64,000 nt of DNA from Escherichia coli. Lineage in GTDB: Bacteria > Pseudomonadota > Gammaproteobacteria > Enterobacterales > Enterobacteriaceae. Location of the stretch: the NCBI RefSeq assembly GCF_003334355.1, contig NZ_QOWP01000010.1; one strand, given 5' to 3'. The notes under the pieces are model-generated. The model was not told where the DNA came from. It did no database searches and saw only the letters and a program-made list of their open reading frames with translations. The position numbers and the translations under genes are program-made. Of the stretch, positions 36,804-39,633 are shown piece by piece (positions within the stretch are counted from its first letter, which is position 1; the number at the start of each line of letters is the position of its first letter).

Positions 36804-36832
36804 CTGACGAAAGTCAGTTCAATTTACTAAAG

Positions 36833-36866
36833 GCAAAAAAAACCCCGCAGCAGCGGGGTTTTTCTA
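36833..36866. terminator. bidirectional intrinsic terminator between convergent matP and ompA
   Basis: A8 run, hairpin ccccgc-agca-gcgggg, then ttttt. Confidence 0.7.
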
Positions 36867-36878
36867 CCAGACGAGAAC

Positions 36879-37919
36879 TTAAGCCTGCGGCTGAGTTACA
36901 ACGTCTTTGATACCTTTAACTTCGATCTCTACGCGACGATCCGGAGCCAGGCAGTCGATCAGTGCAGCACGCTGTTTCACGTTGTCACAGGTGTTGCCAG
37001 TAACCGGGTTGGATTCGCCCATACCACGTGCGGAGATCTTGTCTGCCGGGATACCTTTGGAGATCAGGTAATCAACAACAGACTGAGCACGGCGCTCGGA
37101 CAGACCCTGGTTGTAAGCGTCAGAACCGATGCGGTCGGTGTAACCCAGAACAACTACGGAACCGTCTTTCGGATCCAGGTTGCTCAGCTGGCTGTACAGC
37201 TGATCCAGAGCAGCCTGACCTTCCGGTTTCAGGGTTGCTTTGTTGAAGTTGAACAGAACGTCAGACTTCAGAGTGAAGTGCTTGGTCTGTACTTCCGGTG
37301 CCGGAGCTGGAGCCGGAGCAACTACTGGAGCTGCTTCGCCCTGACCGAAACGGTAGGAAACACCCAGGCTCAGCATGCCGTTGTCCGGACGAGTGCCGAT
37401 GGTGTGTGCGTCACCGATGTTGTTGGTCCACTGGTATTCCAGACGGGTAGCGATTTCAGGAGTGATCGCGTACTCAACACCGCCAGCGAAGACCGGAGAA
37501 ACGCCGGTGTCGTGGTTTTTACCATAAACGTTGGATTTAGTGTCTGCACGCCATACCATACCACCCAGACGAGTGTAGATGTCCAGGTCGTCAGTGATTG
37601 GGTAACCCAGTTTAGCGGTCAGTTGAACGCCCTGAGCTTTGTATGCACCGTTTTCAACGCTGCCTTTGTACGGCATACGACCTAACCAGTCGTAACCCAT
37701 TTCAAAGCCAACATACGGGTTAACCTGGTAACCACCAAAAGCACCAGCGCCCAGTTGGTTTTCATGGGTCGGGCCATTGTTGTTGATGAAACCAGTGTCA
37801 TGGTACTGGGACCAGCCCAGTTTAGCACCAGTGTACCAGGTGTTATCTTTCGGAGCGGCCTGCGCTACGGTAGCGAAACCAGCCAGTGCCACTGCAATCG
37901 CGATAGCTGTCTTTTTCAT
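36879..37919 (-). CDS. ompA: outer membrane protein A (OmpA)
   Basis: ORF 36879..37991 (starts at an upstream GTG); recognised start [36 protein letters not shown]; C-terminal OmpA-like domain; start set in frame with the ORF track. Confidence 0.96.
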
Positions 37920-38052
37920 TTTTTGCGCCTCGTTATCATCCAAAATACGCCATGAATATCTCCAACGAGATAACACGGTTAAATCCTTCACCGGGGGATC
38001 TGCTCAATATTAACTCTACCGATATCTTCGGCTTATGCCGAGCACCCCTGGC
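37920..38052 (-). promoter_or_regulatory. ompA long 5' untranslated leader (stabilising stem-loops; sRNA target region)
   Basis: minus-strand sequence beginning GCCAGGGGTGCTCGGCATAAGCCGAAGATATCGGTAGAG… matches the known roughly 133-nt ompA leader. Confidence 0.65.
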
Positions 38053-38275
38053 GATGTAAAGTCTACAACGTAGTTGAAAACTTACAAGTGTGAACTCCGT
38101 CAGGCATATGAAAAAAAAGTCTTGTATAAGGTATGTTTAATCTTTTTTGTCAGCGACAATTTACAGAAGAGAATCGCGGAAACCGCTTCAGACAAGCCTC
38201 CGCAAGGAAAATTAGTCACGACTGAAAGCATTGGCTGGGCGACAAAAAAAGTTCCAGGATTAATCCTAAATTTAC

Positions 38276-38785
38276 TTAATGATACAAATTAGAGTGAATT
38301 TTTAGCCCGGAAAGTTGTCTCGTGGCGTGAGAGGATGCGCTTACCGGACGCATAATAAACCCCATAGCGTTACCTTCATTTGCCGCATCAACAAGTTCAG
38401 CATGCTCTTCTTCAGTCAAATCATCTGCCAACCAACCGATCACCACACTGTAATTGCCCGTGCGTAAAGCGCGAACCATTGACTCCACAGTGTGGCAAGG
38501 GGAGAGCTGGCTAATCTGCATTACTTTCGTTAAGGGTAGCCCAGATGCCTGAACCCATTCCCGACTCAGTTTTTGTTGCGGTGTTAACCAGAGTTGCCAG
38601 CGCGATTGCTGACCGAGTTGCTGTAACAATGGCAACAGTAGAAGTTGCGTCATCATGGGCTGATCTTCGCGATAGACAACTTCACTGATAAGCCCGGCTG
38701 TAGTGTTTTCCGTAGAGACACGCGCAATTTTACTTGCTGCGGATGAGAACGACGAAGAACGATGTGCATAGCCTGAAGTGTACAT
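38276..38785 (-). CDS. sulA: SOS cell-division inhibitor SulA
   Basis: ORF 38276..38791; recognised start [38 protein letters not shown]; 169 aa. Confidence 0.95.
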
Positions 38786-38807
38786 AATCAATCCAGCCCC
38801 TGTGAGT

Positions 38808-38827
38808 TACTGTATGGATGTACAGTA
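38808..38827. promoter_or_regulatory. LexA (SOS) box of sulA
   Basis: tactgtatggatgtacagta = CTGT-N8-ACAG palindrome; reverse complement TACTGTACATCCATACAGTA is the published sulA operator; 23 bp upstream of the start codon. Confidence 0.85.
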
Positions 38828-39003
38828 CATCCAGTGACAACAAAGATCAACCCTATTTTCGGAAAGAGCCTCGCAAATTTTGTCGTTGGTGACGGGAAAA
38901 CATAAATTAATCTTGCCCCTTAAGAATAAGTTGCCTATTTTCGTAGTTAACGGATCCGTTAATGTGAATCATTCTTTTATGTTATGATTTTAAAAGGAAT
39001 TTT

Positions 39004-39633
39004 ATGAAAAGCCTCTCCTATAAGCGGATCTATAAATCACAAGAATACCTGGCAACGTTGGGCACAATTGAATACCGATCATTGTTTGGCAGTTACAGCC
39101 TGACCGTTGACGACACGGTGTTTGCGATGGTTTCTGATGGTGAGTTGTATCTTCGGGCTTGTGAGCAAAGTGCACAGTACTGTGTAAAACATCCGCCTGT
39201 CTGGCTGACATATAAAAAGTGTGGCCGATCCGTTACCCTCAATTACTATCGGGTTGATGAAAGTCTATGGCGAAATCAACTGAAGCTGGTGCGTCTGTCG
39301 AAATATTCTCTCGATGCAGCGCTGAAAGAGAAAAGCACGCGCAATACCCGGGAAAGACTGAAAGATTTGCCCAATATGTCTTTTCATCTGGAAGCGATTC
39401 TCGGGGAGGTGGGGATTAAGGATGTACGGGCGTTACGTATACTTGGGGCAAAAATGTGTTGGTTGCGACTGCGGCAGCAAAACAGTCTGGTGACAGAAAA
39501 GATTCTGTTTATGCTTGAAGGTGCCATTATCGGCATTCATGAAGCTGCGCTCCCGGTGGCACGCCGCCAGGAGCTTGCAGAATGGGCTGACTCTCTTACG
39601 CCGAAACAGGAGTTTCCTGCGGAACTTGAGTAA
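39004..39633 (+). CDS. sxy: competence regulator Sxy (TfoX)
   Basis: ORF 209 aa; N-terminus MKSLSYKRIYKSQEYLATLGTIEYRSLFGSYSL. Confidence 0.92.
   Translation: MKSLSYKRIYKSQEYLATLGTIEYRSLFGSYSLTVDDTVFAMVSDGELYLRACEQSAQYCVKHPPVWLTYKKCGRSVTLNYYRVDESLWRNQLKLVRLSKYSLDAALKEKSTRNTRERLKDLPNMSFHLEAILGEVGIKDVRALRILGAKMCWLRLRQQNSLVTEKILFMLEGAIIGIHEAALPVARRQELAEWADSLTPKQEFPAELE

Follow-up and report, generated by a model that had tools for sequence, protein, structure and literature searches.

In Escherichia coli, sulA and sxy are read away from each other out of one short gap, and the locus raises the question of whether the SOS-induced cell division inhibitor and the coactivator of the CRP-S regulon are governed there by a shared control element or by two promoters that lie back to back. 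The window analysed here is a stretch of E. coli DNA of 64,000 nucleotides, and positions are window positions unless a genome record is named. The gap covers 38786-39003 (218 bp, 36% GC) and is bounded by the two start codons, the sulA ATG occupying 38785-38783 on the minus strand and the sxy ATG beginning at 39004 on the plus strand. The flanking genes are the following.

38276-38785, minus strand: sulA coding sequence, an open reading frame of 169 aa for the SOS-induced cell division inhibitor; RefSeq annotation, 100% identity
39004-39633, plus strand: sxy (tfoX) coding sequence, an open reading frame of 209 aa for the CRP-S regulon coactivator; RefSeq annotation, 100% identity

SulA scored 275 bits against the NCBIfam equivalog NF007892, where the cutoff is 162, and a search of Sxy against NCBIfam returned no matching model. 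The gene neighbourhood is ompA-sulA-sxy-yccS of E. coli, and a 401-bp query spanning the gap was present in all 5426 of 5426 complete E. coli genomes, many strains being 100% identical, with 'SOS-induced cell division inhibitor SulA' and 'CRP-S regulon transcriptional coactivator Sxy' as the annotation at the matched loci. Four of the 5429 sulA-sxy matches in the E. coli genome collection were on plasmid-labelled records, which may be mis-assigned chromosomal contigs. Compared with MG1655, the 218-bp gap is identical and the surrounding 4 kb contain one base difference, at 37560 in a third codon position of ompA (A in the window, G in MG1655). As this is the sole difference in 4 kb, the window strain is very close to, although not identical with, MG1655. 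A window position p corresponds to p + 982134 in NC_000913.3, and an NC_000913.2 coordinate minus 981357 gives the window position, which was verified by the gene coordinates in the table of Kim et al. 2012.

Several features of the neighbourhood were recorded alongside. The sxy (plus) and yccS (minus) genes are convergent, and their 3' coding ends overlap by 38 bp at 39596-39633. A gene for a Lon-like AAA ATPase, ycbZ, lies three genes from sulA (about 34000-39633: ycbZ, matP, ompA, sulA, sxy). SulA is a classic Lon substrate and Sxy has been published to be degraded by Lon as well; the proximity of ycbZ to the genes of two Lon substrates is probably a coincidence. In addition, Cappable-seq places plus-strand starts at 38070, 38168, 38329, 38343 and 38364, of which that at 38070 is fairly strong (relative read score, RRS, 39) and lies 18 bp from the ompA start on the opposite strand (38052). 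Transcripts from these starts would be antisense to sulA, entering the gene at its 3' end and continuing into its body. No gene is annotated around them, and the 72-codon TTG open reading frame at 38074-38292 is a mechanical call only.

For comparison across genera, loci were collected by a scan with the Sxy protein, taking one genome per species. This gave 20 usable loci and thus an alignment of 21 sequences from at least five genera, with Escherichia, Citrobacter, Intestinirhabdus, an Enterobacter MAG, Lelliottia and a Raoultella-labelled MAG among the loci sampled. In all 20 of the 20 loci sulA lies divergently upstream of sxy across a gap of about 217 bp, and the divergent pair is also kept in Klebsiella. 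One Bacillales assembly (Alkalicoccobacillus porphyridii) includes a contig of 276 bp, NZ_VLXZ01000190.1, with a coverage of about 1x, that is 99% identical to E. coli sxy and is almost certainly E. coli contamination.

On the sulA side, the elements below account for the promoter and its operator.

38808-38827, minus strand: LexA operator (SOS box), TACTGTACATCCATACAGTA on the sulA strand and TACTGTATGGATGTACAGTA on the plus strand, covering -12 to +8 of PsulA
38822-38827, minus strand: sulA -10 hexamer TACTGT from a weighted scan, forming the opening six bases of the LexA box and placed 7 nt ahead of the start at 38815
38845-38850, minus strand: sulA -35 hexamer TTGATC from the weighted scan, with a 17-bp spacer to TACTGT and inside the 67-bp functional PsulA fragment
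38786-38815, minus strand: sulA 5' UTR of 30 nt, with the start at 38815 being NC_000913.2 1020172(-) in Kim et al. 2012

The sulA operator is a textbook SOS box and PsulA is a standard SOS reporter; Cole 1983 and Mizusawa et al. 1983 are said to be the classic LexA footprinting papers. The earlier note had described a perfect SOS box, a palindrome identical to the known sulA LexA operator and 23 bp upstream of the gene. Letter for letter, the 20-mer at 38808-38827 is the sulA LexA box published in a UV-response tiling-array study, in which sulA was strongly UV-induced (PMC3009722), so that the identity holds, and the 22 nt that we count as separating the box from the first base of the sulA start codon make the stated distance correct within counting convention. 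Perfection is found in the arms, TACTGTA and TACAGTA, which are fully complementary, but not in the whole 20-mer: the central 6 bp are unpaired, 14/20 positions are palindromic and 17/20 match the consensus TACTG(TA)5CAGTA. A synthesised 67-bp PsulA fragment ('-1 to -67', window 38786-38852) within which the box is located suffices for an SOS-inducible PsulA-gfp reporter (PMC529313). A single box is present at Salmonella sulA too, where it lies 21 bp from the ATG; its heterology index of 1.49 is the lowest among the rows compared from the published Table 1.

A motif scan found the CTGT-N8-ACAG core exactly once in the 64-kb window. By itself this bare core is weak evidence, because 0.58 occurrences are expected by chance per window and the motif appeared in 44 of 100 shuffles, and it is on this expectation that one could take the palindrome for a chance match without function. 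With up to three mismatches to the consensus allowed, however, the full 20-mer is expected only 0.01 times; moreover, it is identical to a characterised operator, it overlaps the sulA -10 and start, and its arms are kept across genera, with 7/7 invariant positions in the left arm and 6/7 in the right among the 21 sequences, next to a 17-bp spacer with only 4 invariant positions. The chance reading is refuted by published work on this very sequence, and we consider it vanishingly unlikely. Based on sequence identity, 38808-38827 is confirmed as the sulA LexA operator, overlapping the -10 and the start.

The LexA box spans the entire sulA -10 hexamer plus the start point, the layout classically associated with repression by occlusion. 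Going by what is established for LexA, a LexA dimer on the box (-12 to +8) would block RNA polymerase at PsulA, and DNA damage, through RecA-stimulated self-cleavage of LexA, would free the promoter so that SulA is made. The start at 38815 is taken solely from Kim et al. 2012, where it is the only start listed for sulA; the Cappable-seq data covered plus-strand starts here. A promoter scan of 38600-39200 at a 9-of-12 threshold returned no promoter, since this threshold is stricter than either real promoter, and a weighted scan for sigma-70 hexamers recovered both PsulA and Psxy. In the weighted scan, the top-scoring minus-strand hexamer pair in the gap was not the real sulA promoter, but TTAACT/16/TATTCT (38923-38950), which would fire towards sulA from inside the sxy promoter. 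A second palindrome, TGGATGTAC-A-GTACATCCA (38815-38833), is perfect in the window and overlaps the upstream half of the LexA box as well as the sulA -10. We rejected it as a functional element. It is broken in other Escherichia lineages and in the other genera sampled (GAATATAC or GGATATAC), and therefore it probably arose by lineage-specific chance.

On the sxy side, the start and the elements around it are as follows.

38913-38918, plus strand: sxy -35-like hexamer TTGCCC from the weighted scan, within the invariant block ATCTTGCC
38936-38941, plus strand: sxy -10 hexamer TATTTT from the weighted scan, after a 17-bp spacer and 8 nt upstream of the mapped start
38949-39003, plus strand: sxy 5' leader of 55 nt, with the main start at A38949 in two genome-wide maps
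38995, plus strand: minor sxy start at an A, Cappable-seq 1020352(+), RRS 3.4, with the extended -10-like TGTTATGAT at 38980-38988
38994-38998, plus strand: Shine-Dalgarno-like AAGGA of sxy, read from the sequence, 5 nt upstream of the ATG

The expectation that the gap must also hold the sxy promoter agrees with both maps, which are independent of each other: NC_000913.2 1020306(+), equal to 38949, has an RRS of 58.6 in Cappable-seq and 124 reads with a 55-nt 5' UTR in Kim et al. 2012, and the hexamers and the CRP-S site described below also lie inside the gap. The maps come from glucose minimal medium, where Sxy is presumably low, and 38949 is therefore a presumed start for the Sxy-activated transcript. 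TTGCCC/17/TATTTT is the best plus-strand sigma-70 pair in the gap and stands directly upstream of 38949, and its -10 is invariant at 5/6 positions in the 21 sequences. Another plus-strand pair, TTGTCG/17/TAAATT (38880-38908), was rejected, as no mapped start follows it and its -35 lacks conservation. For the minor start, the weighted scan gave the hexamer TATGAT; the ATGATTT around it is invariant across genera and the TG of the extended element is not. A transcript from 38995 would begin inside the ribosome-binding region of sxy and would lack most of the Shine-Dalgarno sequence. We also discarded a seven-codon upstream open reading frame that begins with the ATG at 38984 and whose stop overlaps the sxy ATG, because a 1-nt deletion destroys it in Citrobacter.

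The regulatory site that serves this start can be placed exactly.

38857-38878, unstranded: CRP-S site, a 22-mer with the core CGGAA-AGAGCC-TCGCA at 38860-38875, from the text and primers of PMC6728893

The sxy promoter has been reported to bear a Sxy-dependent CRP-S site and to be positively autoregulated, and the CRP-Sxy complex is curated in RegulonDB. CRP-S sites of E. coli are 22-bp CRP-like sites defined by a TGCGA half, with C at position 6, and by a second, weaker half similar to TTCCA, and in the sxy site the conserved half TGCGA is promoter-proximal and the weak half TTCCG distal (PMC6728893). This published layout fits exactly one place in the gap, 38860-38875, which reads TGCGA-GGCTCT-TTCCG on the minus strand (38875-38860). 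The supplementary primers DDsxy, PPsxy and PDsxy, which mutate exactly these pentamers (PMC6728893), match the window base for base. With two non-conserved halves the sxy promoter loses induction by Sxy, and with two TGCGA halves it becomes Sxy-independent (PMC6728893). Measured against the symmetric CRP-S consensus the site scores 7/10, a score expected about 0.7 times in the gap and thus not above chance alone. In the 21 sequences, TCGCA is invariant at 5/5 positions, CGGAA at 4/5 and the spacer at 1/6.

The premise of the earlier note that sxy is CRP-dependent is therefore upheld through published mutagenesis of a non-canonical, Sxy-dependent site and not through a canonical CRP site. A scan of the gap for CRP half-sites located the CRP-S halves at 38860-38875, but for the canonical site TGTGA-N6-TCACA the best match in the gap was 7/10 at 38980-38995, downstream of the sxy start, and the rest reached at most 6/10. 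The 'strong CRP binding site' mentioned in PMC3330819 was not reproduced by the canonical scan of the gap.

The CRP-S centre, 38867.5, corresponds to -81.5 relative to the sxy start and to -52.5 relative to the sulA start. Class I activation by CRP takes place from positions near -82.5, so the site is 1 bp off the textbook position, and its placement at -81.5 fits class I-type activation from the start at 38949. Sxy-dependent activation needs activating region 1 of CRP but can dispense with region 2, which points to a mechanism of the class I kind. Considering what is established for class I activation, Psxy would work by recruitment: the promoter (TTGCCC/17/TATTTT, start 38949) would be weak unaided, and cAMP-CRP together with Sxy at the asymmetric CRP-S site (-81.5) would boost it, giving positive autoregulation of sxy. 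In E. coli NH-21 (NZ_CP148034.1), and in this one strain, a 768-bp IS1 at 1733-2500 lies inside the CRP-S spacer (window-equivalent 38863-38870), with an 8-bp target duplication, AAAGAGCC, and splits the CGGAA half from the TCGCA half. Judged from its position, the insertion should uncouple sxy from autoregulation.

The start itself is overlapped by one further element.

38947-38962, unstranded: perfect 16-bp palindrome TTAACGGATCCGTTAA, from -2 to +14 relative to the sxy start, with a GATC/BamHI centre

The left part of this palindrome, TAACGGATC (38948-38956), is invariant in the 21 sequences, and the right arm drifts with 6-8 of the 8 arm positions still complementary. TTAACGGATCCGTTAA may serve as the operator of an unknown repressor, may form a hairpin at the 5' end, or may simply be a conserved initial transcribed sequence. 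The natural inducer of E. coli sxy is called an open question in the literature, and this conserved block with its palindrome over the start, together with a conflicting published start, are loose ends for the question of sxy induction.

The distribution of conserved positions follows the elements of the two promoters. In the gap alignment of the 21 sequences, 46% of positions are invariant, and they are clustered in blocks. On the sulA side these are the leader, the LexA arms (13/14) and the -35 (6/6), followed by the CRP-S halves; on the sxy side they are ATCTTGCC, which holds the -35, TAAGTTGCCTATTTTC, which holds the -10, TAACGGATC, ATGATTT and the ribosome-binding region. The segments between blocks at 38828-38844 and 38879-38912 are 24% invariant and contain zero indels, and the whole region from the LexA box to the sxy -10 is without indels in the 21 sequences. 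Variable segments that are free of indels fit spacing constraints within each promoter.

With these elements in place, the two starts, 38815 and 38949, are on opposite strands and 134 bp apart, their transcripts do not overlap, and the centres of the LexA box and the CRP-S site are separated by 50 bp. The sequences, both starts, the identities of the operators, their conservation and their fixed spacing are all either observed here or published. Very likely, sulA and sxy have a sigma-70 promoter and an operator each, and the two promoters, placed back to back, are independent. Three other readings bear on this arrangement, and one of them concerns the sxy start on which the distances depend. 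Sinha and Redfield 2012 stated that sxy is transcribed from a G 115 bp upstream of the ATG, which corresponds to 38889, and described a stem-loop in the sxy leader that resembles those of Haemophilus and Vibrio (PMC3330819). Taken together, this would make G38889 the functional start of a 115-nt leader, with the main control exerted by a leader stem-loop that masks the ribosome-binding site. In the minimum-energy fold, GGAUCCGUU (38952-38960) does pair with AGCGGAUCU (39023-39031) and encloses the Shine-Dalgarno sequence and the AUG, but the folding energies are no better than those of shuffles (z-scores of -0.01 and -0.8) and compensatory changes do not preserve the stem in other genera. The one hit of an Rfam search was a spurious match to a snoRNA (21.6 bits; gathering threshold 36). 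With no family, a fold no better than shuffles and no covariation, a structured RNA leader of either kind, an Rfam family or a sxy-type stem-loop, was rejected. The abstract of Jaskolska and Gerdes 2015 reportedly finds no evidence of translational control of sxy in E. coli. The start at 38889 also disagrees with both genome-wide maps: Cappable-seq has no plus-strand start between 1019721 and 1020306 (window 38364 and 38949), and Kim et al. 2012 lists only 38949 for sxy. Furthermore, the area of 38889 is the least conserved part of the gap, and a start there would bring the CRP-S site to -21.5, from where it could not activate. We regard control from G38889 through a leader stem-loop as unlikely.

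The remaining two readings concern coupling between the promoters, as the earlier note had spoken of a compact divergent region shared by the two genes. Back-to-back promoters do occupy one gap, but no shared operator is evident, and in the test for divergent promoters sharing one operator neither site was positioned to act on both starts. If the LexA box also repressed sxy, the competence coactivator would belong to the SOS regulon, a reading that draws on the presence of the box in the same 218-bp gap and on starts that are only 134 bp apart. The centre of the box at 38817.5, however, is at -131.5 from the sxy start, too distant for occlusion, and the variant Psxy reporters of PMC6728893, which begin at 38827 and keep only the last base of the box, show normal Sxy-dependent control. 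The UV tiling-array paper, as a weak negative, lists sulA as induced and never mentions sxy (PMC3009722). Repression of sxy by LexA is thus highly improbable. Closer in distance is the opposite direction, in which CRP-Sxy bound to its site would affect PsulA, or polymerase at the derepressed sulA promoter would interfere with the binding of CRP-Sxy. The CRP-S 22-mer is 7 bp from the sulA -35, its centre at -52.5 of PsulA falls within the usual contact zone of the polymerase alpha subunit, and the spacing of box, -35 and CRP-S is free of indels in the 21 sequences. Against such cross-talk, -52.5 is in phase with neither the class I (-61.5) nor the class II (-41.5) position, a reporter is functional with the 67-bp PsulA fragment, which stops at 38852 and excludes the CRP-S site (PMC529313), none of the papers retrieved connects Sxy with sulA expression, and the fixed spacing is already explained by the constraints of each promoter. 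We consider it quite unlikely. Were it true, cross-talk would make the two promoters sterically interdependent, with CRP-Sxy dampening or boosting sulA or competing with polymerase at PsulA, and would couple division arrest to the competence programme, so that DNA damage and competence gate each other here, and this mutual gating would add to the shared fate of SulA and Sxy as Lon substrates. As each promoter is functional on fragments without the operator of the other (PMC6728893, PMC529313), independent back-to-back promoters, and not a shared control element, are the reading that we retain.

Every element of the region is already in the literature, namely the sulA SOS box and promoter, the sxy CRP-S site, the autoregulation and both starts. 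The locus therefore carries little weight as a discovery, and what the analysis yields is a base-accurate map of starts, operators and conserved blocks. In comparison with known systems, the sulA half does not differ from the E. coli K-12 sulA (sfiA) promoter-operator, having the same box, -35 TTGATC, -10 TACTGT and 30-nt leader. The tfoX/sxy promoters of Vibrio and Haemophilus serve the same regulator family and are likewise cAMP-CRP-dependent, but Vibrio tfoX has canonical CRP-N sites, whereas the site of E. coli sxy is an asymmetric CRP-S site. Translation is also controlled by a leader stem-loop in Haemophilus and Vibrio, in contrast with E. coli, in which the stem finds no thermodynamic or covariation support. 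Unlike divergent pairs of a regulator gene and its target operon that share one operator, nothing shows either site of this gap serving both genes; the region instead resembles back-to-back divergent promoters with separate operators, as there is likewise one regulator site per promoter. Finally, compared with the published sxy CRP-S site and autoregulated promoter (Jaskolska and Gerdes 2015; Sondberg et al. 2019), the half-sites and flanks are identical, and what is added here is the position of the site centre, at -81.5 from the start found in two genome-wide maps.
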